In this document: positions 23,203-34,000 of the stretch, piece by piece
Numbering within the stretch: the first letter of the stretch is position 1
Layout: each line of letters starts with the position of its first letter
DNA from: a virus
Lineage: Duplodnaviria > Caudoviricetes
Length of the DNA stretch: 51,203 nucleotides
Virus record (IMG/VR): IMGVR_UViG_3300028840_000792
Span: 1-51,203 of that record
Strand: one strand, 5' to 3'
The notes under the pieces: generated by a model
Database searches by the model: none
The model's input: the letters and a program-made list of their open reading frames with translations, nothing else
What the model was told of the DNA's origin: nothing
Position numbers and translations under genes: made by a program

Positions 23203-25167
23203 ATGTTTAAAACATTTTTAGAAGAAAATAACACTGTAGCAATTGACTACGAAACAACCGGTTTCAATCCGTATAAGGGTGATAGGATATTTGCCTTTGT
23301 AGTTACTAATTGGAACTGCGAGTCTAAGATATACAGATTCGATCATACATCAGCAGTAAAGAAAAGAGTTGCTCAGGAAGTATTCGAATTTTTTCATAAA
23401 GACGATATAAAAAAAGTAGCGCACAATGCTAAGTTTGAAATGGGATTTACTTCAATGTACTTTGATGGGGTTCTGCCAAAGTCATTCTGGCATGACACAT
23501 ACATCATGTCAAAAATTTTAAAGAATATTCTACCAAGACATAAGCTTGAGACTCTTGCTGACAGATACTTCAGAGACATGATGCCAGAAGATGCTGAGAT
23601 GTGGGAATTTTATGACAAGCAAGTTAAGAAACACATGACTACTCAGAAGAGACTAATGAACAATTATCCAAAGAGAGTTGAACCTGAAATACTCCAACCA
23701 TTGTGGGACAATGGTATAACACCACTTATAACTGACAGACCAAACTATGGTTTGATTCCAGTGTCTATCATGAAGGGATATCAGGATGCTGATGGTGTTA
23801 GATGTATGCTACTGTTCAGACTAATGCTGTCAAAAATAAAAGAAGATGAAAGAATATGGGAGGATTATCTTAACGAACTTCATTTGTTGAAAGTTACTCA
23901 AAAAATGGAGCAACGTGGGATGATGATACATAAACGAAATTCTGATGAACTGATACGAAAACTTCAAAACGATCTTAAAGATATTGAAAAACAAAAGAAG
24001 AAAATTTTTGGATTTGATATAAACCTTGACAGTTGCGATCAGTTACAGAAACATTTGTTTGGATACATTAATCCAAAGAAACACGAGACATTAAACGAAG
24101 AGTGGAAAAGACATAGACCAGTATTTAATCTTACACCAAATGAAATGACTGCTGGTGGTGCTCCGTCAGCTTCAAAGGAAAATATACTTGCTCTTCAAAA
24201 ACATTATCCGAATAATCGTGTTCTTGATATGATACTAAGATATCGTGCCTGGGCTAAGGGTCAGACAATGATATATTCATATCAGGAAAACGCTGGTGAA
24301 AACCATATTATACATCCAACTACAAACACGAATGAAGCCAAGACAGGAAGACAGTCAGTGTCTAATCCTAATCTACAAAATGTAGCCAAGGAATTTTCTG
24401 TTAACACAGTGTATGGAATACCGGCCAGGAGATGTTTCAGACCAAGACCAGGTTATGTATACATGCTTGGTGACTATGCTGGAATAGAAATGAGATTAAT
24501 TATTGCTGCCAGTGGTCAGGAAGATTTAATCGAGGCTATGAATAATGACCCAGATTATGATGTTCATTCTGATAACGCTACAGTAATACTTGCTAAGGAT
24601 TTTACTGGTATCACTGACAGTAAGAAGATTAAGAGTGTTAGAGCTGATGTAAAGAATGCTACATTCGGTAGATGTTATGGCGCTAACTTGCCCACATGGT
24701 CTTCAGCATTAAGACAGACTGTAGAAGAAGCTAAACCTGGATGGGAGAGGTTTGCTGAAAAAAGAAATGAGTTATTTAACTTCACTAAAAATATGATGAT
24801 TGAAGTGAAAGAACATGGTTTCATTACATCAGCGTTTGGTCGTAAGTTAAGAGTTGACAAGGAATATTATGCAGCTAACTACAGGATTCAAGGTGATGCT
24901 GCTGGTATATTAAAGAGAGCACAGAATAACGTTGATGATTATATTCTTGGAGTTCATGACGGAGACTATGATAAGCTGGCTATGCTTTTAACAGTACATG
25001 ATGAAATTATTTTTGAAATGCATCGTTCTTGTCTTGAAGATAAAAATTATATACTTCATGATTTAGCATACTGTATGACTGACGTTGAAGAAATTAAGGT
25101 GCCTCTTGGTGTTGAATGGAAAATATCAACAACAAACTGGCAAGACGCTAAGGACTACATGCCATGA
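23203..25167 (+). CDS. polA: Family A DNA polymerase with 3'-5' exonuclease
   Basis: Exo motifs DYETTG, HNAKFE and Y...D; TGRQS..PNLQN; motif A DYAGIEMR; motif B R...K...FG..YG; motif C VHDEI. Confidence 0.93.
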   Translation: MFKTFLEENNTVAIDYETTGFNPYKGDRIFAFVVTNWNCESKIYRFDHTSAVKKRVAQEVFEFFHKDDIKKVAHNAKFEMGFTSMYFDGVLPKSFWHDTYIMSKILKNILPRHKLETLADRYFRDMMPEDAEMWEFYDKQVKKHMTTQKRLMNNYPKRVEPEILQPLWDNGITPLITDRPNYGLIPVSIMKGYQDADGVRCMLLFRLMLSKIKEDERIWEDYLNELHLLKVTQKMEQRGMMIHKRNSDELIRKLQNDLKDIEKQKKKIFGFDINLDSCDQLQKHLFGYINPKKHETLNEEWKRHRPVFNLTPNEMTAGGAPSASKENILALQKHYPNNRVLDMILRYRAWAKGQTMIYSYQENAGENHIIHPTTNTNEAKTGRQSVSNPNLQNVAKEFSVNTVYGIPARRCFRPRPGYVYMLGDYAGIEMRLIIAASGQEDLIEAMNNDPDYDVHSDNATVILAKDFTGITDSKKIKSVRADVKNATFGRCYGANLPTWSSALRQTVEEAKPGWERFAEKRNELFNFTKNMMIEVKEHGFITSAFGRKLRVDKEYYAANYRIQGDAAGILKRAQNNVDDYILGVHDGDYDKLAMLLTVHDEIIFEMHRSCLEDKNYILHDLAYCMTDVEEIKVPLGVEWKISTTNWQDAKDYMP

Positions 25168-25415: not shown

Positions 25416-25633
25416 CTAAAATGGACATGCCAACTCTGATAAAGAGAATAATAAAGGAGGCAGCTCTTCCACCGACTGAGGAAGAGATGCTTTACAAATT
25501 TAACCGCCATCAGCTTCTTGAGCTATATGTATACATAACAGAACTCAAGAAGACTAATGAAGAATTGATTAAGAAAATACAGAAGATGAATCAATCAAGT
25601 GGTGGTGGGGATGTCAGAACTAGCGAGTCATAA
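25412..25633 (+). CDS. Hypothetical protein
   Basis: ATGA-coupled; GAGGA RBS. Confidence 0.6.
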   Translation: MTKMDMPTLIKRIIKEAALPPTEEEMLYKFNRHQLLELYVYITELKKTNEELIKKIQKMNQSSGGGDVRTSES

Positions 25634-27671
25634 AAACCTAACAACATTCAAGCAACACGGATTCATATACAAGGGTGAATCAGGCACTCAAGTGTATGGT
25701 CATTCAGTGTTCAGTGGTAAGGATAACTTCTGGATAAATCCTGATACAAAAATGTGGGACTGTAAAAACACTGGTGAATCAGGTGGATTTCAGCAGTTTC
25801 TAAAACGTGTTCATAACATGTCTCTTGACCACATTAAGGGTGAGAGACTTGGGTGGTTAAAAAAGAAGAGGGGCTTTTTAAGAGCTACAGTAAAACATCA
25901 CCAAGTTGGTTTTAATCCACATAATGATACGTATCTTATTCCAGTGTATGATGGTAAAGAAGATACTATGTGGGACTTGCGTATATACAATCCAAAGCTT
26001 AAGAAGATAATGGGCACTGCTGGATGCAATGTAGGTTTATACGGATGGGAGGAACTACAGAAATTTAAGAATGTTTGGGTTGTTGAAGGTGAGTGGGATA
26101 AGATGGCGATGTGGGAAATACTATATCGTACTGATAGATTGAAGGATGAAACTGTTGTTGCTGTTCCTGGTGCTAATACATTCAAGTCTGACTGGTGCCA
26201 GTTGTTCAAAGAAAAGAATGTTACTGTTGTTTATGACCACGATCTTCCAAAATCTGTAGGAGGAGTTGTTAGACCTGGAGCCGGACCAGCTGGAACAGTC
26301 AAGGTATACAAGGCACTTAAAAATATTTGCAAGTCAATCAAGTTTGTTAACTGGCCTGAAGATTTATCTGATGGTTACGATGTAAATGATTTACTGCGTG
26401 ATGTAAGAAATCATAAGAGATGTTATGACAAACTTGTAAGTTATTCTAGTCGTAATATACCAATTGAAGAACAGTATCTCAATGAAGTACTTGAAGAGAA
26501 TAAGACTGATGAGGAAATATTTGTAGGAGAATTTATTAAACCGGAAGATGTATACAAGGAATATCAAAAATGGTTTTATTTACCAGACACGACTGTGATT
26601 GATGTAGTATATGGAACTATAATTGCTAATCGTCTTGAGGGGGATCCTCTTTGGTTGTTTTTAATCGCGCCTTCAGGCGCCACTAAGACTGAAATATGTC
26701 TTAGTATATCGGAGGCACCCAGAGTGGTGTCTGTCACAACCATGACTCCGCATAGCCTGGTTTCCGGAGCCAATTTTGCTGGAGGAGGGGATCCCTCTCT
26801 CATTCCTTTGCTTGATGGTAAGGTTCTTATCATTAAAGACTTCACTACAATACTTAACATGAATAGCACAGCACGTGATGAAATTTTTGGTATACTTCGT
26901 GATGCGTACGATGGTAAGATTGAAAAGATGTTTGGCAACGGAGTATTTAGAAGTTATCTTTCTAAATTCGGAATCGTAGCGGGAGTGACGCCCGCTATCG
27001 AACTGTATATAACTGGTAACACTGCATTTGGTGAAAGATTTCTTGGGTACAAGATACCTGTATCAACTTCTCATAAAGAACGTATACATTATCTCAAACA
27101 GGCAATGAAGAATGTAAACAAAGAAGATAAGTTGAGGGAAGGTCTTAGGGAATTCGGTAAGAAAGTTTTATCATATAACTATACAAAAAATTCTGTTGAT
27201 ATACCAGAATCTCTTACAAACAAGTTGATGGTTCTTGCTGAATGGACAGCAACAATGAGGGGAACAGTAACACGAGACCAATATTCAAAAGAAGTGATAG
27301 CAAAACCATTTATTGAATTAGCTACTCGTTTAGTTAAGCAGTACAAAAAGTTTTTAATAGGCACAACTCTATTCAGAGGAAAAAGAAAAGCAACACGTAA
27401 TGAGTACTCTATAATAAGAGACATAGCAGTCAGCTCAGTGGCAAATGACTTGAATGATATTACAAAATACCTATACGAACGTGGTTTGGGAAAGTGGTCT
27501 GAGTATAAACAGATACTCGAAGCAACAGGTCTTCCTTCAGAGAACCTACGACGAAAAATTGAAAACTTAATTCTACTTAAAGTAATTCATAAACAAAAAA
27601 CCGGTATGACACTATACTATTCAATTGATGAGGAGATACATGACCTCATTAAGACAGGAGGTATATACTAA
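25611..27671 (+). CDS. Primase-helicase fusion (TOPRIM plus MCM-like AAA+ plus wHTH)
   Basis: TOPRIM VVEGEWD, VPGA, YDHD and D.ND; P-loop APSGATKT, IIKDFTT, LRDAYDG and GERFL; C-terminal HTH-like segment. Confidence 0.82.
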   Translation: MSELASHKNLTTFKQHGFIYKGESGTQVYGHSVFSGKDNFWINPDTKMWDCKNTGESGGFQQFLKRVHNMSLDHIKGERLGWLKKKRGFLRATVKHHQVGFNPHNDTYLIPVYDGKEDTMWDLRIYNPKLKKIMGTAGCNVGLYGWEELQKFKNVWVVEGEWDKMAMWEILYRTDRLKDETVVAVPGANTFKSDWCQLFKEKNVTVVYDHDLPKSVGGVVRPGAGPAGTVKVYKALKNICKSIKFVNWPEDLSDGYDVNDLLRDVRNHKRCYDKLVSYSSRNIPIEEQYLNEVLEENKTDEEIFVGEFIKPEDVYKEYQKWFYLPDTTVIDVVYGTIIANRLEGDPLWLFLIAPSGATKTEICLSISEAPRVVSVTTMTPHSLVSGANFAGGGDPSLIPLLDGKVLIIKDFTTILNMNSTARDEIFGILRDAYDGKIEKMFGNGVFRSYLSKFGIVAGVTPAIELYITGNTAFGERFLGYKIPVSTSHKERIHYLKQAMKNVNKEDKLREGLREFGKKVLSYNYTKNSVDIPESLTNKLMVLAEWTATMRGTVTRDQYSKEVIAKPFIELATRLVKQYKKFLIGTTLFRGKRKATRNEYSIIRDIAVSSVANDLNDITKYLYERGLGKWSEYKQILEATGLPSENLRRKIENLILLKVIHKQKTGMTLYYSIDEEIHDLIKTGGIY

Positions 27672-27982
27672 TGTTGACACAAATGTTTGAACTGCAAGAA
27701 AGTTTACAAGAAGTAGTTGGGAGTGACGTTCAGTCTCAAGAATTCAGAAACATGACAGCTCTGGCTCTTTCATCCGAGATACACGAAGCTCTTGGTGAAA
27801 CACCATGGAAACCCTGGAAGAAGAAACAGAAACTAAACGTGGAAAGATACAAGGGTGAGATTGTTGACTGTTGGGCTTTCCTTATTAATCTTACATTTCC
27901 AGTGATGGACGCTAAGGAATTGTTCGATAGATTTGTAGAGAAAAATGAAATCAATGTACGAAGACAAATGACTGGGTATTGA
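27671..27982 (+). CDS. Dimeric all-alpha dUTPase/dCTPase (MazG superfamily)
   Basis: E..E...E.PWKPWK...E.VD..F and EKNEIN..RQ..GY motifs. Confidence 0.82.
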   Translation: MLTQMFELQESLQEVVGSDVQSQEFRNMTALALSSEIHEALGETPWKPWKKKQKLNVERYKGEIVDCWAFLINLTFPVMDAKELFDRFVEKNEINVRRQMTGY

Positions 27983-27983
27983 T

Positions 27984-28157
27984 ATGCACATGTCACACTG
28001 GCGCGTTACTTATATCGATGATCGACTTAATTTCTACACAGCTAGAACACGTTATCCTGTTGATTTGGACAAGTTTCTTCAGATATTGCACGGCCACAAG
28101 CTTATTGACAATATTATAAAGATAGAAAGAATTCCACACGAAATGGAGATACACTGA
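27984..28157 (+). CDS. Hypothetical 57-aa protein (not in ORF track)
   Basis: MHMSHWRVTYIDD...EMEIH; fills the gap and is TGATG-coupled to the next gene. Confidence 0.55.
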   Translation: MHMSHWRVTYIDDRLNFYTARTRYPVDLDKFLQILHGHKLIDNIIKIERIPHEMEIH

Positions 28158-28342
28158 TGCCATATTATGTATGTGACCATAGAAAATCGTGTGATTGTAC
28201 ACAAGCTGATTGTATACATCATGACACACATAAGCTCAGAATGGTTATAAGTAACTTATGTAATCATGAGTCATACTGTCCTGAAGTTGGAGAGACTACT
28301 AGGTGCAGAAAGTCAACATCTAGTTTTGGGAGGACGGAATGA
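28157..28342 (+). CDS. Small Cys/His-rich protein
   Basis: 7 Cys in 61 aa; coupled to both neighbours. Confidence 0.6.
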   Translation: MPYYVCDHRKSCDCTQADCIHHDTHKLRMVISNLCNHESYCPEVGETTRCRKSTSSFGRTE

Positions 28343-28776
28343 AGATAGTTGCTTTCTTACAGAACTGTTGGTTTCCACCAGGAACTAGTCTTTATCATAT
28401 TCGTAGGTATCTTATCAATGACGATTTTAGGAGAAAGGTTTTAAAAAAGGGATGGTCAGGTAAGAGATTGATGAACGCATTCGGTGAAGAATTGTTTGAT
28501 AAAATTATTTGGGACAATGCTTCACTTGAAGTTGGAGCTACGCCAGGTCATCGTGCTGATGCTGACAGAAACCATATTGCTAATGTTATATACAATCACA
28601 GTCCTGATTTAATATTGACATTCGGTACAGTTGCTAGAGACGCTGTACGGATAGTTAACAGGACGTGTGGGGATGGGGCATGTGTACTATCAACTAAACA
28701 CCCAAATGCAAGAGGATTTACAAACGAAGAACTGTCTCATTTTGTCAAACAAGTAAAGGAGTGGATAAATGAATAA
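28339..28776 (+). CDS. Uracil-DNA glycosylase superfamily fold protein
   Basis: LQN.W (motif-1-like), SGKRL, WDNAS, PDLILTFG..A and HPNAR (motif-2-like). Confidence 0.65.
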   Translation: MKIVAFLQNCWFPPGTSLYHIRRYLINDDFRRKVLKKGWSGKRLMNAFGEELFDKIIWDNASLEVGATPGHRADADRNHIANVIYNHSPDLILTFGTVARDAVRIVNRTCGDGACVLSTKHPNARGFTNEELSHFVKQVKEWINE

Positions 28777-29203
28777 TGCATACATCGCGTCCGGCTGGTT
28801 CAATCCTGACCAGGCAGAGGATTTAGGTTTGATTAAGGGATGTCTCAAGGCTTATGGCATAAATTTCTTCAGCCCTAAGGATGAATGCCTGTGTCCTCCT
28901 GATGCTCCTGAGGAAGACAAGATTCATACATTCAGACTCAATCTTAGAGCGATTGAAAACGCAGACTTCATTGTATGTAATACACGCAACAAGGATATGG
29001 GTTCTATCTTTGAAGCTGGTTACGCATACAAGTGTAAAAAACCAATAATCTATTTCTGTCGAGGACTTCAGGGACAATTCAACTTAATGTTGGCCAAGTC
29101 AGGAATCGCAGTTGCGACAGATTCTCACAAGCTGGCTTACTATGTAGGTCAGTTAAAAATGAATGCTAAATTTTCAGAACCGTACACGGAGGATATACAA
29201 TGA
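28769..29203 (+). CDS. Nucleoside 2-deoxyribosyltransferase / MilB-DNPH1-like N-glycosidase
   Basis: YIASGWF, FFSP, AIENAD and D.GSIFEAGYAY..KPII (catalytic Glu motif). Confidence 0.85.
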   Translation: MNNAYIASGWFNPDQAEDLGLIKGCLKAYGINFFSPKDECLCPPDAPEEDKIHTFRLNLRAIENADFIVCNTRNKDMGSIFEAGYAYKCKKPIIYFCRGLQGQFNLMLAKSGIAVATDSHKLAYYVGQLKMNAKFSEPYTEDIQ

Positions 29204-29709
29204 CAAGAACTCAAATGATGAAGTTTCTATCTGAGACTTATAAGCTTAAGACTCTGATAAGATACAACAACACTCCGAGACTGGTCAAAGAATCAGTTGC
29301 TGAACACTCATATTTTGTTACATTAACAGTTTACAAACTGTATGATGTATATAAGTTCGATCTTCTCATCGCGTTAAAAATGGCTTTGTTCCATGATGTA
29401 CCTGAAATATACTTGTCTGACATGCCAAATAACACAAAGATTACATTTCCAGAGATCGCAGCAGCTGTCAAGAATAGTTATCCATCTGCCTCAGATATGT
29501 TAGACCCTACAATGACTCCTCTTATTGATGACTATGAGAACCAAAAAACTCTTGAAGCTAAGATAGTAAAGTTAGCTGATATACTTTCTATACTTCAATA
29601 TACAAGACAGGAAGTCAAGCTCGGAAATCAGTACATGAAAACGATATATGATGGCACTCAAAAAATCGCTAACAAGATTTACAAACAACTTGAGGAATAT
29701 CAGAGATGA
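29200..29709 (+). CDS. HD-domain deoxynucleotide hydrolase (YfbR/DatZ-like)
   Basis: RY......ESVAEHS, ALFHD..E...SD.P and IVKLAD motifs. Confidence 0.88.
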   Translation: MTRTQMMKFLSETYKLKTLIRYNNTPRLVKESVAEHSYFVTLTVYKLYDVYKFDLLIALKMALFHDVPEIYLSDMPNNTKITFPEIAAAVKNSYPSASDMLDPTMTPLIDDYENQKTLEAKIVKLADILSILQYTRQEVKLGNQYMKTIYDGTQKIANKIYKQLEEYQR

Positions 29710-29879
29710 ATGACTACGAAGTAGAAATTCAGATGAAGATGCGTGTCAAGGCTAAGGATTCTAGAGCTGCTGCTGAAGTTGCTGAGACACATCCTCCTGG
29801 TGTATACATTGATGCAGTAAGTTTCTTAATACAGACACCAAAACAAGTTCCAACAATTATTAGCGTGAGGAAGTTATGA
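29706..29879 (+). CDS. Hypothetical 57-aa protein (not in ORF track)
   Basis: MNDYEVEIQMKMRVKAKDSRAAAE...; GAGGA RBS and ATGA overlap. Confidence 0.6.
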   Translation: MNDYEVEIQMKMRVKAKDSRAAAEVAETHPPGVYIDAVSFLIQTPKQVPTIISVRKL

Positions 29880-29916
29880 CTCTGGAAGAAGAAAATACTA
29901 CTCCAGGAGGAACCCC

Positions 29917-30084
29917 ATGAATAAGTCAGATGAGATAAAAAAATGCCCGTTTTGCGGAGCAATACCAAAATATTATAACGGTGACTATGTTGTCCTCCAT
30001 AAAGATGATTGTTTTTTAGCGGGTGAGCAAGAGCATTGGATAGTAGGAAAGTGGATTAAAGCCTGGAACAGGAGGTCAGCATGA
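29917..30084 (+). CDS. Lar-family (restriction alleviation-like) zinc-binding protein, 55 aa (not in ORF track)
   Basis: IKKCPFCG...H...C...AWNRR signature; AGGAGG RBS. Confidence 0.72.
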   Translation: MNKSDEIKKCPFCGAIPKYYNGDYVVLHKDDCFLAGEQEHWIVGKWIKAWNRRSA

Positions 30085-30257
30085 TTGAACCAGAGAATAA
30101 ATGTAAATGTGTACACTCGCCGGTTTGTTTTGTTGAGGGTAAATTCCGTGACCTTTTGAGAAACATGCTTGAATTAAGGTTTGGTGGGCCAAGGGACGGA
30201 AGTGCAGAATTCTATGAATGGGTAAGGAAATATTGTAAGCACAGGAGGTCAGAATGA
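30081..30257 (+). CDS. Small Cys-containing hypothetical protein, 58 aa (not in ORF track)
   Basis: MIEPENKCKCVHSPVC...YCKHRRSE; AGGAGG RBS; ATGA overlaps at both ends. Confidence 0.6.
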   Translation: MIEPENKCKCVHSPVCFVEGKFRDLLRNMLELRFGGPRDGSAEFYEWVRKYCKHRRSE

Positions 30258-30445
30258 GCATAAACCCTGAAATACTGAACTATACATTTCTCTTAATTTG
30301 GATGTTGGGAGCACTGGCTATCATAAGCCACTATGAACTTCAGTACAGACAGAGATGTCTGCACAACGAAAAGTGGAGTAACGGAGCAATGTGGCTTTAC
30401 GGATTTGGTGCTTTTTTATTTTTAATAATAGGAGTAATACTATGA
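30254..30445 (+). CDS. Small two-TM membrane protein
   Basis: Two hydrophobic helices; AGGAGG RBS. Confidence 0.6.
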   Translation: MSINPEILNYTFLLIWMLGALAIISHYELQYRQRCLHNEKWSNGAMWLYGFGAFLFLIIGVIL

Positions 30446-30870
30446 ATAAGATAATCTTCTTTGAAGGTGTAGACTGTGTTGGCAAGACAACAGTCATGAA
30501 GGAATTTAATAAGATAACTGACTTCAGGTATATGTGTCTTGACAGAGGCATAATCAGTTACTTCACGTATGCTGAGATATTCCAGCGTAAGGTTCTGAAG
30601 TATCCTGAATTCATGCTTCAGAGAATCGAGCCTATTTCTATAGTTGTGTATCTTTACGCTGATGAACGTGTATTGACAAAGAGAATGAAAGACACCGGCC
30701 ATCCAGACTATCCGGTTCACACTCATCTAGCCATGTTTGAAAAGAATATAGCCAACGCTGAATTAGGTGGTTTCAGAATCATCAGACAGGATACATCACT
30801 ACTTCAACCAGACAGAATAGCAGACATCATTTATCAAAAGGTTCTAGAGATATGCAACGACGACCAGTAA
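30442..30870 (+). CDS. dNMP / thymidylate kinase-like P-loop kinase
   Basis: IIFFEGVDCVGKTT, DRG..S...Y and VVYL.A....L..R motifs; AGGAG before ATG 30442. Confidence 0.85.
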   Translation: MNKIIFFEGVDCVGKTTVMKEFNKITDFRYMCLDRGIISYFTYAEIFQRKVLKYPEFMLQRIEPISIVVYLYADERVLTKRMKDTGHPDYPVHTHLAMFEKNIANAELGGFRIIRQDTSLLQPDRIADIIYQKVLEICNDDQ

Positions 30871-31097
30871 ATGTGATACACGGTAAGAAGGGCAGACGGC
30901 TTGTAGTTGTCTGTCAGTCTTGCCCACTCGATCTCAGAAATCTGAAAAGCAATCAAAAAACTTCCTGTCTGTATCTCATCGTAAAAGATAAGAAGGGAAA
31001 CCCAACGATGAAGAAGGAACAGGAGTGCCAGTGGTATGCTAAGGATTCAATACTGCGTGGAGAGTCTGGCGTTGCAAATGTCTTGTGTCTTTATTAA
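30852..31097 (+). CDS. Small Cys-rich protein upstream of the radical SAM gene
   Basis: CQSCP...C...C...C in 81 aa. Confidence 0.6.
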   Translation: MQRRPVNVIHGKKGRRLVVVCQSCPLDLRNLKSNQKTSCLYLIVKDKKGNPTMKKEQECQWYAKDSILRGESGVANVLCLY

Positions 31098-31108
31098 AGG
31101 AGGATTCC

Positions 31109-32032
31109 ATGAAGAAAGCTTATGTCGAAGTCGGTAACTCTTGTTTCTGTCACTGTGTGACGTGTGATATACTTAAGAAACCACATCCAAAAATGTCTAT
31201 AGACATATTCAGGTATGTCATAAAAGAACTTTATTCAAACGGTTTTAGAAAAATAAGACTGGCTGGCATGGAGCCACTAACGATTCTTTCTATAGACAGT
31301 TACTTAAGTGCAGTTCGTATGTTGAGGATGGAGTCTGAAATGACTACGACTCTACTGTCTCCAAACATAGGCGTGATTAATGATGTAACTATCGTTGATG
31401 ACCTGAACATCTCTCTGTCAGCGGTTGGGAAGGGAAGATACAAGTCATTCTACAAAGTAGATAAATGGAACTTGTTTGACAAGAACTTCAGATTCCTCCT
31501 GAAAGAGAGAAAGAAACCTGTCACTGTAGTGTACACCATTTCTAAAATCAATTGTGGATTCGAAGACTTTAAAGAATTTATAAGATATATCAACTCTATG
31601 CTTCATCTAAAGCATGACTTACATGTTGTCTTCTTTCCAGAGATTCGTTACGACAATCCATGGACTCAAGACATGATAGATTATGTTGAAAATTTATTTG
31701 AAGCAGCAGCATTAGACTCAGTCAGATTCAGTTATGAATATATACATGACTATACGGGTAAGTGTATACATCAGTGTTTCATACCAAGAGAGGAAGTCTA
31801 CATTAAGTGGAACTGCGATGTATATCCTTGTTGTCTGTCTGGTGGAGAAATTGGACAGCCTCTTCTTGAAGAATTATACATCGGTAATCTAGTAAAGGAT
31901 GGCACAAAGCATGTCATGGAGAGATGCGAAACATTCAGCACCAGGTATCTGGACAACCTGATATGTGATAGGTGTTCCAATAAATATGTTAATAAATTAT
32001 CCAAGTATCCATCTGAGGCTAACCAGGATTGA
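31109..32032 (+). CDS. Radical SAM enzyme with SPASM/twitch domain
   Basis: CX3CX2C (CFCHCVTC), GMEP, and C-terminal C..P...YI....DVYPCC...IGNL...CDRC; AAGGAGG before ATG 31109. Confidence 0.88.
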   Translation: MKKAYVEVGNSCFCHCVTCDILKKPHPKMSIDIFRYVIKELYSNGFRKIRLAGMEPLTILSIDSYLSAVRMLRMESEMTTTLLSPNIGVINDVTIVDDLNISLSAVGKGRYKSFYKVDKWNLFDKNFRFLLKERKKPVTVVYTISKINCGFEDFKEFIRYINSMLHLKHDLHVVFFPEIRYDNPWTQDMIDYVENLFEAAALDSVRFSYEYIHDYTGKCIHQCFIPREEVYIKWNCDVYPCCLSGGEIGQPLLEELYIGNLVKDGTKHVMERCETFSTRYLDNLICDRCSNKYVNKLSKYPSEANQD

Positions 32033-32204
32033 TACAGTAGCCGTTTAACCTATGTCAGAAGTGACTTTGTTTAAAATGTATAGGTATATATGGTCGGGTC
32101 GGATCGTCCCAAACGGCGCGATTCGATGGTCTAGACGGTATAATAATGTATAACAATGTATACGTATGTATACAATCAATAACAATTAATATAAGGAGGA
32201 AGAA

Positions 32205-33113
32205 ATGAATGATTTTCCTATGAAAGTAAGATTCGGTGAGAAGCCAGAGACTGAATGGTATACATCGGGTAGAAACTTAAGACTGGCGATGATGGACTAC
32301 CCACGTGGCGATTTTCGTTCAAGGTGTGTTGAAATGATGAAGGCTACATGGAGTGATGAGCCATTTGATAAGGCAACTATGTATGTCGACAAAGACATAA
32401 ACATCGGTAAAGAATTTCTTAACATACTTAAGATGAAGGTTCTACCCAACTCACTGGAAAGTCTGAACTTCACGTTCAGGATGGAAGGCCTGACACTCAT
32501 TGAGGTGACACACCTGCTCAGGCATCGAATGCTTAAGAGTATACATGCCCAGTGTTCTGCTGACAGGTTTCTTCAGAAGGACTCATGCTTTATTCCATCT
32601 TCTATTGTCGGAACAGAGTTTGAAAAGTCGTATAAGTCTCTGACTTATCAGTGCAAAGAGCTATACGCTAATATGATCGACTCAGGTGATGTATCTATTC
32701 TCGATGCTAGATACATACTCACCCGAAACCATCGTTACTTCTACTACTTCACCATCGATCTCAAGACAGCCATTCAGTTTATTCACCAGCGTAAGTGTAC
32801 TCAGATACAACCTGAGATGGATAACTACATGGCGCACTATATGCACGACGCTATTTCTTCCATCATACCAGAATTTAAAGATGTGGTATCGCTGGAATGT
32901 AACGAGAGGTGTGTGTATATACAGTCATCACCAGAACATTCCTCCAGGGTTTATATGCCGGATGATGTTCATTCAAAGGTTCTTCATAGGATGGAGGACA
33001 AGATGATGATATCTTCAGATGAGGCGAATTCCAGAAGGGAGAAGAATTACTATTTACACCAGAAAACTAGAAAACAGATGGGTGTAAAGTTCTGTCCTCA
33101 GGATCTCCCATAA
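32205..33113 (+). CDS. Divergent ThyX-like flavoprotein
   Basis: FTF..EG, RHR..S, DARYIL and F...R....Q.E fit the ThyX fold; several canonical substrate and folate residues differ. Confidence 0.82.
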   Translation: MNDFPMKVRFGEKPETEWYTSGRNLRLAMMDYPRGDFRSRCVEMMKATWSDEPFDKATMYVDKDINIGKEFLNILKMKVLPNSLESLNFTFRMEGLTLIEVTHLLRHRMLKSIHAQCSADRFLQKDSCFIPSSIVGTEFEKSYKSLTYQCKELYANMIDSGDVSILDARYILTRNHRYFYYFTIDLKTAIQFIHQRKCTQIQPEMDNYMAHYMHDAISSIIPEFKDVVSLECNERCVYIQSSPEHSSRVYMPDDVHSKVLHRMEDKMMISSDEANSRREKNYYLHQKTRKQMGVKFCPQDLP

Positions 33114-33342
33114 CGGTAACGATCTGACATCCGAACTGGAATACTATACCAGAAGCCGTTTAGCGCTGTCTAAGGAGTTCTTTTTCTCCTTATATTATTA
33201 TATATAAGATATTAAAATATTACCTCTACGATAGAGAGACGGCCATCCCATTCCTGGATACGTTTGTATCAGTTTTGATACAAAAGTCTTCAGAAACGGC
33301 GAAAAATGCGACTCTCCTGGTTCGTAAAATAATGAATTATTT

Positions 33343-33373
33343 CCTTTACATTTGACCCAAATATTGGTAGATT
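33343..33373 (+). promoter_or_regulatory. Sigma70-type promoter (likely early)
   Basis: CC-TTTACA (33345-50), 17 nt ending TGG, then TAGATT (33368-73). Confidence 0.72.
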
Positions 33374-33409
33374 ATAAATATAAGGATTCACAAACGAAAG
33401 GAGAACGAG

Positions 33410-33658
33410 ATGATTCGAGGTCAGAAAGTAGAAATATCTGGAAGAATAAATTCTGGTATCTGCAGTAAATATTTTTCTGGTAATAAAATATCTGGAGTTA
33501 TTTCTAAAGTTCTGGATAATAATAATTTCCAGATTCGGGTCGATTCAAAATATTTTGTAGTAAGAAAAATTGGTGGTGTCTATTCAGATTTAAATCTCTG
33601 GAGGGTCCATTACAGAAGTCATTTCCTGTTGAATAATTGTAGTATTAGTTTTAGTTAA
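33410..33658 (+). CDS. Hypothetical early protein (very AT-rich)
   Basis: GAAAGGAGA RBS; first ORF after the promoter. Confidence 0.55.
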   Translation: MIRGQKVEISGRINSGICSKYFSGNKISGVISKVLDNNNFQIRVDSKYFVVRKIGGVYSDLNLWRVHYRSHFLLNNCSISFS

Positions 33659-33710
33659 TTTTTTTTTTAATTAGTTTTTTCTTAATTAAATTTCTTGAAA
33701 GGAGAATAGT

Positions 33711-33941
33711 ATGTCAATGAATAAAGAACAAATGAAGGAGCTGGTCGGTCAGCTTATTGAGGAAGAGTCAATTGCCAATATTACTCTTGGGTATGTTGAC
33801 AAAGACCATTTCTGCCATCATGACATGGTGGTGATTCATGAATGTTCAGCTGCAACTACAGAGAGACTTATCAGGAAGGGATACAGCCTCTTCATAGAAA
33901 AAGATGGAGTTCACGTAGACGTAATTGGCAAGCTGAATTAA
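33711..33941 (+). CDS. Hypothetical protein
   Basis: GAAAGGAGA RBS. Confidence 0.7.
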   Translation: MSMNKEQMKELVGQLIEEESIANITLGYVDKDHFCHHDMVVIHECSAATTERLIRKGYSLFIEKDGVHVDVIGKLN

Positions 33942-34000
33942 ACCTGGGACGGGCGCCTCTCCGTCAATAAATAATCAGGGGCACAGAAAAAAACCCAGGT
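33942..34000 (+). promoter_or_regulatory. Intergenic structured element (pseudoknot enclosed by a stem)
   Basis: ACCTGGG/CCCAGGT, GACGG/CCGTC, and loop GCCTCT complementary to AGGGGC. Confidence 0.45.

Follow-up and report, generated by a model that had tools for sequence, protein, structure and literature searches.

To our knowledge, the phage pyrimidine hydroxymethylases and hydroxylases characterised so far are all of the ThyA fold. Among the phages with modified thymidine, YerA41, Carin-5 and SP-15 carry glycosylated, linker-attached modifications (PMC12686479, PMC13697223), and their family A DNA polymerases (PolA) have an active N-terminal uracil-DNA glycosylase (UDG) domain, which removes uracil and passes the modified thymidine (PMC13697223). 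In SP-15, about half of the thymine is replaced, and two Thy1 proteins are present, of which the authors hypothesise gp9 to be the thymidylate synthase and gp130 the hydroxymethyluridylate synthase (PMC5977210). In the present study, we analysed the virus record IMGVR_UViG_3300028840_000792 (the window, by which we mean this whole stretch of 51,203 nucleotides), in which a block of seven enzyme genes lies at 27671-33113. Five of these genes, coding for a nucleotide pyrophosphatase, a nucleoside 2'-deoxyribosyltransferase (NDT), an HD-domain nucleotidase, a deoxynucleoside monophosphate (dNMP) kinase and a ThyX-like protein, form a real, conserved and apparently undescribed module, which follows the known logic of thymine replacement with a ThyX-fold enzyme at its centre. 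A ThyX-fold hydroxymethylase has been guessed once before, for SP-15 gp130.

An earlier note on this DNA, made from the letters alone, had described the seven co-oriented open reading frames (ORFs) as a candidate pathway of base replacement or modification. All seven were recovered with the starts given below, on the + strand and directly after the polymerase and primase genes. Six of the enzyme identities that it had proposed are supported by profiles; for the seventh, the UDG fold, no profile matched and there are leads only. The seven features, with lengths in amino acids (aa) where given, are as follows:

27671..27982, + strand: short all-alpha nucleoside triphosphate (NTP) pyrophosphatase of the dimeric dUTPase (dUTPase_2) type, 103 aa (PF08761 E 2e-17, phrog_173 E 5e-17)
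28339..28776, + strand: probable UDG-superfamily protein, in trans to PolA, lineage-specific (Atlas leads and the annotation of a homologue)
28769..29203, + strand: nucleoside 2'-deoxyribosyltransferase, true NDT type (PF05014 E 8e-14, phrog_7995 E 3e-22)
29200..29709, + strand: HD-domain 5'-deoxynucleotidase, YfbR/OxsA type (PF12917, YfbR-like/HD_3, E 8e-18; NF003009 E 1e-10, below cut-off)
30442..30870, + strand: thymidylate-kinase-like P-loop dNMP kinase (phrog_761 E 1e-9)
31109..32032, + strand: radical SAM enzyme with a SPASM domain (CxxxCxxC near the N-terminus, CFCHCVTC; PF13186 E 4e-6)
32205..33113, + strand: long-form divergent ThyX-like flavoenzyme (Pfam Thy1 58.3 bits; thyX equivalog 34.2 against 87.9)

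The ThyX-like protein passes the Pfam Thy1 cut-off of 24.8 bits over residues 70-222 and fails the cut-off of the thyX equivalog, TIGR02170; for comparison, the canonical ThyX of a related locus (L010) reaches 162 bits on Thy1. The signature motif of ThyX is RHRxxSxxxxSxR(Y). In the window protein, the RHR triplet is kept, the second Ser is a Cys that is invariant in the window clade, and the full motif does not occur. After this Cys, two residues are inserted, the second of them an invariant Asp (RHRMLKSIHAQCSADRF), and the Asp is conserved far beyond the window clade. The best-scoring PDB ThyX chain for the family is the Ser-to-Cys mutant 3g4c. Residues were compared in alignments of 19 and 17 sequences and by aligning the profile to the T. 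maritima ThyX chains, and we assumed that the roles of the ThyX residues (the dUMP-binding arginines and the arginine that binds uracil O4) apply to the matching positions. The substrate arginines have conserved counterparts (Arg169, Arg196 and mostly Arg121), and the Asn/Lys positions on the flavin side are retained. Asp206 was considered as a replacement of the uracil-binding arginine and was rejected, because the alignment with T. maritima ThyX puts the conserved Arg196 there. The subgroup of the window also conserves Cys198, Cys232, Cys236 and His256 in a C-terminal extension, and the subgroup of Geobacillus phage GR1 is without them.

A word search found 37 homologues of the ThyX-like protein. 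In a library clustered at 50% identity, the profile search reached 60 representatives with E of at most 1e-30, and 285 when E was allowed up to 1e-10. A tree of 109 rows, made by a quick maximum-likelihood run, has the 15 canonical ThyX rows on one side (support 99). A long-form clade of 59 rows (support 96) includes GR1, and the window belongs to a smaller clade of 16 rows inside it (support 97); the rows of YerA41, GXN1 and LIS04 have long, unreliable branches. Its rows are the proteins of 265-360 aa among P0086-P0175, 12 close homologues, 14 proteins chosen for a canonical-type motif, and translations from eight loci, namely the isolates GR1, LIS04, YerA41 and GXN1, L010 (its canonical ThyX), and L011, L012 and L017 (their ThyX-like proteins). 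Many of the long-form proteins (about 300-350 aa; among P0096-P0176) are without the RHR triplet, and this loss suggests further functional divergence in the viral superfamily. In addition, mobile elements interrupt or extend some ThyX-like genes: that of P0112 carries an HNH/His-Me endonuclease domain, and that of P0200 an intein (Hint).

Related loci were collected by pattern scans, which gave 13 loci in IMG/VR, 45 in metagenomes and one in 185,579 species genomes, the last being a 44-kb, phage-like contig of a Clostridia metagenome-assembled genome (MAG). The search of phage-isolate proteins for the ThyX-like protein gave one strong match, Geobacillus phage GR1. After removal of duplicates, 46 distinct loci were obtained, 29 of which hold at least 5.5 kb. 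The NDT, HD and ThyX-like genes were present in 14 of the 14 first loci by tblastn. Using module hidden Markov models built from subsets of the same loci, NDT was found in 28 of the 29 loci, HD and the kinase in 25 each, the pyrophosphatase in 21, and an intact ThyX-like ORF in 27; the other two loci had been fetched by their ThyX-like tblastn match and gave no ORF past the filter. The usual order is pyrophosphatase, kinase/NDT, HD and ThyX-like, with an adjoining PolA or PolIII-alpha gene, and the identity of the ThyX-like proteins across these loci goes down to about 35%. Furthermore, the genes are joined to each other in several ways. Kinase-NDT fusions occur at 10 loci, and at two the kinase is fused to a mini ThyA-like protein (L029:9064-9978, L030:9346-10245). 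At L052:3042-4001, a single ORF joins the pyrophosphatase to an NT5C-like pyrimidine 5'-deoxynucleotidase (24.1 bits against 24.8); this locus has no HD gene, and the fusion is a predicted non-orthologous replacement of the HD step. The grouping of the five genes is far beyond chance, and this is not so for the radical SAM and UDG-like genes. The module therefore consists of pyrophosphatase, NDT, HD, kinase and ThyX-like genes, and the other two are lineage-specific accessories. The co-occurrence in related phages that the earlier note had expected was confirmed for these five and fell away for the two accessories.

The ThyX-like gene was also found together with other thymidylate synthase genes. 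At L010, a canonical ThyX (Thy1 E 2e-47, RHRIASYSQESTRY) stands inside the module with the ThyX-like gene (L010:7808-8467 and L010:9935-10867). At L011 there is a ThyA-type gene with the dUMP-type Asn, which adjoins a dCMP deaminase gene, and dCMP deaminase genes occur in several related loci. The division of labour hypothesised for gp9 and gp130 of SP-15 explains such a coexistence of a canonical ThyX and a ThyX-like protein, as in L010. From its coexistence with thymidylate synthase genes, its failure at the equivalog cut-off and its separate clade, the ThyX-like protein reads as something other than a redundant thymidylate synthase. The earlier note had seen none of the known signature enzymes in the block; this was too strict, as a divergent Thy1 protein has already been hypothesised to be the hydroxymethyl-dUMP synthase of SP-15 (PMC5977210).

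Glycosyltransferase (GT) genes, of the type that decorates hydroxymethyl bases of DNA, were found in and beside the module in relatives of the window. In the closest relative (L003), whose ThyX-like protein is 60% identical to that of the window, the gene between a shared 81-aa ORF and the ThyX-like gene matches PF20691 TAGT (E 8e-5, below cut-off) and phrog_842, the T-even beta-glucosyl-hydroxymethylcytosine alpha-glucosyltransferase (E 3e-7). This slot is the exact position of the radical SAM gene in the window, and L003 has a GT25-like gene upstream. In GR1, the module includes an alpha-glucosyltransferase of phrog_2888 (E 6e-53), and a nitroreductase-type flavin reductase gene adjoins the ThyX-like gene. 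At L005, there are an FkbM methyltransferase gene and a 242-aa GT-A-like gene (L005:9268-9996), which abuts the ThyX-like gene just upstream. The second-best profile match, P0085 (551 aa), is an in-frame fusion of a GT-A-like and a ThyX-like domain; its GT-A-like part is 37% identical to the L005 upstream gene (E 4e-41) and matches Glycos_transf_2 weakly (22.1 against 23.3). As a single gene call, this fusion could be an assembly artefact. The presence of glycosyltransferases in and on the module implies a hydroxyl acceptor. GR1 (L002) also has amidoligase and gamma-glutamylcyclotransferase genes at 23273-24505, about 10 kb downstream of its module; such genes have a predicted role in base hypermodification.

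The other four proteins of the module were assigned as follows. The pyrophosphatase scores 64.5 bits on PF08761 (cut-off 22.9), a match that covers model positions 2-80 of 162, the first half only, and it has weak PDB matches to dimeric dUTPases. The NDT scores 52.3 bits on PF05014 (cut-off 28.8), its best PDB match is the NDT 6evs (E 4e-5), and Y5, D76, E82, N105 and a C-terminal E/Q are invariant in 15 sequences of the family. We take these to be the NDT hallmarks, with the catalytic Glu, the Asp at the 5'-OH site and the conserved C-terminal residue; in the dNMP N-glycosidases of the DNPH1/MilB type, a Ser presumably replaces this Asp and binds the 5'-phosphate. The label 'MilB/DNPH1-like' that the earlier note gave to this protein was rejected, since DNPH1 4fyh matches at E 0.34 only and the DNPH1 Ser aligns with Asp76. 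The HD protein scores 65.2 bits on PF12917/HD_3 (cut-off 25.9) and does not reach the NCBIfam equivalog NF003009 (41.6 against 122). It has PDB matches to 1xx7 (E 4e-8), 2cqz, YfbR (E 7e-4), HDDC2 and OxsA, and it matches phrog_7076, labelled 'dATP triphosphohydrolase' (E 2e-23). Its former label 'DatZ-like' was not borne out, and a Z-genome (DatZ/PurZ) reading was rejected, as no DatZ chain is among its 15 PDB matches up to E 1 and no PurZ gene (PF00709) was found in the genome. The kinase is weak alone and scores 22.9 against a cut-off of 83 on the equivalog TIGR00041; the ten-member profile of its family matches SPbeta YorR 2axp (E 8e-16) and yeast Tmk (E 3e-10). The GK and DR...Y motifs are invariant in this family, and no T4 gp1 chain is among the best 60 PDB matches listed for its profile.

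The kinase-NDT fusion was also used as a query, and six of 50,697 phage records matched (GR1, vB_SagM-GXN1, Carin-5, YerA41, vB_Yru_GN1 and LIS04). Within 10 kb, YerA41 encodes a 387-aa weak-Thy1 protein, an NDT, a MazG-like protein and a 5'(3')-deoxyribonucleotidase. The weak-Thy1 protein is YerA41_081 (L065:1541-2704), a 'hypothetical protein' with a Thy1 match at E 3.5e-5 (24.1 bits against 24.8), and the Carin-5 paper lists it as thymidylate synthase; YerA41_086 (L065:5001-5537), annotated as mannosyltransferase, is an NDT (PF05014 E 8e-14). LIS04 (Thornevirus SP15) has PolA, a small P-loop ATPase, HD, a tandem NDT and a 371-aa Thy1 protein (E 3e-12), and in GXN1 the genes for NDT, HD (E 6e-36 to a module HD) and a weak-Thy1 protein follow one another. 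In MW202897, an HD homologue lies beside a ThyA-type 'pyrimidine hmase' and a glucosyltransferase; the 'pyrimidine hmase', which was also compared with the family profile in hhalign, belongs to the ThyA type and is not ThyX-like. Overall, the base-replacement logic proposed in the earlier note is supported by the conserved module, the glycosyltransferases, the pairing in L010 and the gene sets of the thymine-hypermodified phages, and what did not hold is that all seven genes share in it.

We place about half of our confidence in a reading of these sequences in which the module would replace part or all of the thymine in the phage DNA by 5-hydroxymethyldeoxyuridine (5-hmdU) or a derivative (a 5-substituted uracil). 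In the proposed pathway, the ThyX-like protein (32205) would convert dUMP with a folate one-carbon unit into 5-hydroxymethyl-dUMP instead of dTMP. The kinase (30442) would phosphorylate the modified dUMP, host kinases would take it to the triphosphate, and the phage PolA would incorporate it. The pyrophosphatase (27671) would convert dUTP and dTTP into monophosphates, the HD protein (29200) would dephosphorylate dTMP, and the NDT (28769) would remove or exchange the thymine on the resulting deoxynucleoside, so that the canonical nucleotide would be drained and its deoxyribose would be reusable. In addition, the UDG-like protein (28339) would work with the polymerase and clear misincorporated uracil, and the radical SAM enzyme (31109), in the glycosyltransferase slot, may further alter the hydroxymethyl group in the window lineage. 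A uracil substrate is favoured and seems probable, as RHR and the counterparts of the dUMP arginines are kept and the kinase is Tmk-like. We know of no described 5-hydroxymethyluracil pathway of which an NDT or an HD nucleotidase is a part. The chemistry, which the earlier note thought may be new, need not be so, because the simplest product, 5-hydroxymethyl-dUMP, is a known phage nucleotide.

For the UDG-like protein, no Pfam (PF03167), PHROG or NCBIfam match was found, and the comparison of a 20-homologue profile with the PDB gave no UDG and only spurious MepR-type matches. In the Atlas, a cluster 32% of whose members have PF03167 is matched with a feature score of 0.91, and UDG and PolA-UDG clusters with a TM score of 0.72; a 40%-identical homologue from an uncultured phage was annotated by its depositors as G:T/U glycosylase. 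The protein has 43 homologues, the WDN and HHPNAR motifs are invariant in the family, and its QN[PC]W and HHPNAR motifs presumably correspond to UDG motifs. A contig of 51,602 bases encodes a 55%-identical copy, and a 67%-identical ThyX-like protein comes from a contig of the same size and source. For thymine-modified phages, UDGs are described as separate proteins in trans or as fusions with PolA, and the form in trans is said to be common in phages (PMC13697223). Just upstream of the UDG-like gene, at 28157-28342, is a 61-aa Cys/His-rich ORF, a possible zinc binder with no family match.

The radical SAM protein scores 27.6 bits on PF13186 (cut-off 21.5), and its NCBIfam matches are all far below cut-off (best 34 bits against 380), so no subfamily was reached. 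It has just three homologues in the protein database (P0039-P0041), which do carry PF04055, and one of them comes from a contig that agrees in length and source with that of a ThyX-like homologue, which is suggestive of a shared contig. No match to it was found in the 50,697 phage records. The search of five isolate genomes with PF04055 found none, which says little because the window protein itself misses PF04055. Alcohol dehydrogenases such as anSME and BtrN belong to the SPASM/twitch enzymes, so this enzyme might oxidise the hydroxymethyl group.

Several observations weigh against the replacement of thymine, and some of them favour other explanations. In hhalign, the ThyX-like family profile gave very weak scores with the proteins of YerA41 (E 0.46), LIS04 (E 0.002) and GXN1 (E 0.05), and the parallel with these phages therefore lies more in the gene sets than in orthology. 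The role proposed for the NDT is inferred. Among the accessory genes, the radical SAM gene was found in two of the 29 loci, the window and L036 (there directly after the ThyX-like gene), and the UDG-like gene in none of the 14 first related loci by tblastn. No glycosyltransferase was found in the window, and its complete assembly from ordinary metagenome data would argue against a bulky polymerase-blocking group. Restriction sites are strongly avoided in the genome, with 62 GATC observed and 224 expected (observed/expected 0.28, z -10.8), one CGATCG against 13 expected, and 29 GGCC against 57.5 (0.5); the DNA therefore evolved under restriction pressure, which is difficult to reconcile with a modification that gives full protection. 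Hydroxymethyluracil alone gives poor protection against restriction. Furthermore, the ThyX-like protein keeps every mapped residue needed by a thymidylate synthase and could therefore simply make dTMP. The module would then serve ordinary deoxynucleotide salvage and dTMP supply for a phage without ribonucleotide reductase (RNR), with the ThyX-like protein as a divergent thymidylate synthase, the kinase as dTMP kinase and the pyrophosphatase as dUTPase; HD and NDT would recycle host deoxynucleotides and rebalance the bases, and the DNA would be canonical. This fits a complete genome in which no gene for a glycosyltransferase, RNR, ThyA, dCMP deaminase or second Thy1 protein was found, the retained RHR and substrate arginines, the Tmk-like kinase and a strong GATC/CGATCG avoidance as expected of unprotected DNA; of 14 related records, 12 have no other full-length gene of the thymidylate synthase families than the ThyX-like one. 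It does not fit the canonical ThyX side by side with the ThyX-like gene in L010, the ThyA-type gene of L011, the DNA-type glycosyltransferases inside the module, one of them fused to the ThyX-like domain, or the failed equivalog cut-off and separate clade; moreover, NDT homologues are otherwise concentrated in thymine-hypermodified phages. We regard salvage as unlikely, and as the strongest of the competing explanations.

The modified base could also be cytosine. In 18 of the 29 loci, the subgroup of the window not being among them, a mini ThyA-fold protein of 150-200 aa is encoded directly downstream of the ThyX-like gene (for example L007:10764-11228, L009:7273-7773, L013:10903-11514 and L002:12936-13391). 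The residues Cys, RS, Asp and His do not vary in it. In the PDB, the protein resembles T4 dCMP hydroxymethylase most closely (E 5e-7), with a lower score for the D-to-N mutant chain. The invariant Asp aligns with the cytosine-specifying Asp of the N177D rule (PMC13326640). The phages with this protein may modify cytosine or both pyrimidines, and it is this mini hydroxymethylase, together with glycosyltransferase families named for hydroxymethylcytosine, that makes cytosine a candidate. In a T4-type replacement, the ThyX-like protein would modify dCMP at C5 (hydroxymethyl, methyl or hydroxyl), with a nucleophilic attack by its conserved Cys and N3/N4 bound by its conserved Asp, the pyrophosphatase would be a dCTPase, and thymidylate would come from the host or a separate synthase. 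The invariant Cys and Asp of the substrate loop would suit this chemistry, canonical thymidylate synthase genes and dCMP deaminases co-occur as in T4, and the matched glycosyltransferase families are those of hydroxymethylcytosine phages. However, the counterpart of the arginine that we take to bind uracil O4 is nearly invariant, the kinase resembles dTMP kinases with no T4 gp1 among the listed matches, and the 5'-nucleotidase and NDT would destroy the dCMP needed by the enzyme. The window lineage is also without the mini hydroxymethylase, and the related isolates with chemical data are modified on thymine, not on cytosine; cytosine replacement appears to us distinctly improbable. We give similarly little weight to a combination in which a ThyX-fold dUMP C5-hydroxymethylase, an undescribed thymine surrogate made by the radical SAM enzyme (for example, oxidised or carbon-extended) and a 'thymine-out' swap by HD and NDT, recycling the deoxyribose of dTMP, would act together. 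As the radical SAM and UDG-like genes are lineage-specific, the flavin- and radical-SAM-made pyrimidine that the earlier note gave as an example is not a property of the module. Finally, the seven genes might stand together by chance, as early genes that are unrelated and share no pathway, in line with the poor conservation of the radical SAM and UDG-like genes with the others and with six small unrelated ORFs interspersed; the five-gene core contradicts it by keeping its order over 29 diverged loci and by three kinds of fusion, and it is very hard to credit. Replacement of thymine by 5-hmdU or a derivative is thus the reading that we prefer.

The window is a whole myovirus genome. The record is complete, with direct terminal repeats at its ends, its large ORFs are all on the + strand, and 40 further ORFs have PHROG matches, which are structural and myovirus-typical (tail sheath, baseplate, portal, major head protein). 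Its replication block includes a helicase, a resolvase, an exonuclease, a Sak4-like annealing protein and a single-stranded DNA-binding protein, which are followed by PolA and a primase-helicase. Four further features belong to this region or stand inside the enzyme block:

23203..25167, + strand: family A DNA polymerase (PolA) with 3'-5' exonuclease and no fused UDG domain (PF00476 E 4e-55, PF01612 E 9e-7)
25599..27671, + strand: primase-helicase (phrog_47 DNA primase E 4e-14, phrog_239 primase/helicase E 1e-12)
29917..30084, + strand: Lar-like restriction-alleviation protein, 55 aa, inside the nucleotide block (phrog_599 E 2e-6; PF14354 E 7e-4, below cut-off)
30852..31097, + strand: 81-aa ORF with no family match (30% identical to L003:8610, in the same position; its cluster holds the window and L003 only)

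In the phage collection, the proteins of isolates nearest to this PolA are less than 28% identical, with no close relative, and the primase-helicase has a 63% identical counterpart in L003. The Lar-like protein is one of the six small ORFs interspersed among the seven block genes. No tRNA genes were found in the window, and no nucleotide similarity of positions 27000-34000 to the 50,697 phage records was detected. One ThyX-like homologue (P0010) comes from a Scytonema MAG, which together with the site avoidance gives a hint of a filamentous cyanobacterial host.

If our reading is true, the ThyX-like enzymes would be a second enzymatic origin for hydroxymethyl-pyrimidine DNA, a function would be assigned to the widespread phage NDT genes, and a sequence marker for thymine-modified phages in metagenomes would be obtained. 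The ThyX-like clade is sizeable and almost purely viral, with NDT, HD nucleotidase, Tmk-like kinase and NTP pyrophosphatase as fixed partners, and its only cultured member is Geobacillus phage GR1, on which no literature was found. In the full-text literature, subscription journals being outside the scope of the search, no description of a module of ThyX-like, NDT and HD genes was found. This agrees with the earlier note, which knew of no characterised pathway with this gene set, and the module is apparently undescribed.

Among the known systems, SP-15, whose DNA contains dihydroxypentyluracil, pairs a canonical-like ThyX with a divergent Thy1 protein in the same way as L010 (PMC5977210). The SP-15-type Thy1 is only remotely similar (LIS04_124, hhalign E 0.002) and has lost RHR. 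Furthermore, the phages of this group are jumbo phages with sugar-nucleotide clusters, whereas the window phage has 51 kb, no such clusters and a radical SAM gene instead. YerA41 and Carin-5 share NDT homologues with the module, and YerA41 also a weak-Thy1 protein, a MazG-like pyrophosphatase and a 5'(3')-deoxyribonucleotidase; their UDG is associated with PolA (PMC13697223). They differ in being large phages with glycosylated linker-phosphate modifications that block sequencing, in the fusion of the UDG to PolA, which in the window is a separate gene, and in Thy1-like proteins that can barely be aligned with ours. In SPO1/SP8 and PhiW-14, as is proposed for the present module, hydroxymethyl-dUMP is made from dUMP and methylene-tetrahydrofolate and dTTP is destroyed, PhiW-14 having a dTTPase and hydroxymethyl-dUTP (PMC5977210). 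Their hydroxymethylases have the ThyA fold, whereas the candidate here is ThyX-fold and flavin-dependent.

The set of a modifying enzyme, a dNMP kinase, an all-alpha dNTP pyrophosphatase and an own polymerase is also that of T4 (gp42, gp1 and gp56), and relatives of the window have T-even-type glucosyltransferase families and a gp42-like mini protein. T4 is, however, without an NDT and a 5'-nucleotidase, and the window is without a gp42-like gene and has a Tmk-like kinase. The pathways of M6 and ViI resemble the proposed one in the post-replicative decoration of 5-hmdU and in the radical SAM enzymes of some of them (PMC8989533); ThyX is discussed there as a mechanistic analogy only. The starting point of these pathways is a ThyA-type hydroxymethylase, and they depend on two further enzymes, a 5-hmdU DNA kinase and aGPT-Pplase; in searches with general family profiles, none of them dedicated to these two, neither was seen among the matches of the window. 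PolB of polyoxin biosynthesis is likewise a neofunctionalised ThyX paralogue with altered substrate loops (PMC5954106), but it is bacterial, methylates UMP/dUMP and has no NDT, HD or kinase partners. Finally, the 5-hydroxy-dCMP synthases of RB69/DLP3 are enzymes of the thymidylate synthase family that use a flavin, place a hydroxyl-bearing group on a pyrimidine dNMP, and are paired with a dNMP kinase and DNA glycosyltransferases (PMC13326640). These synthases have the ThyA fold, act on dCMP and depend on oxygen (PMC13326640), whereas the enzyme of the present module is ThyX-fold and its substrate is probably dUMP.

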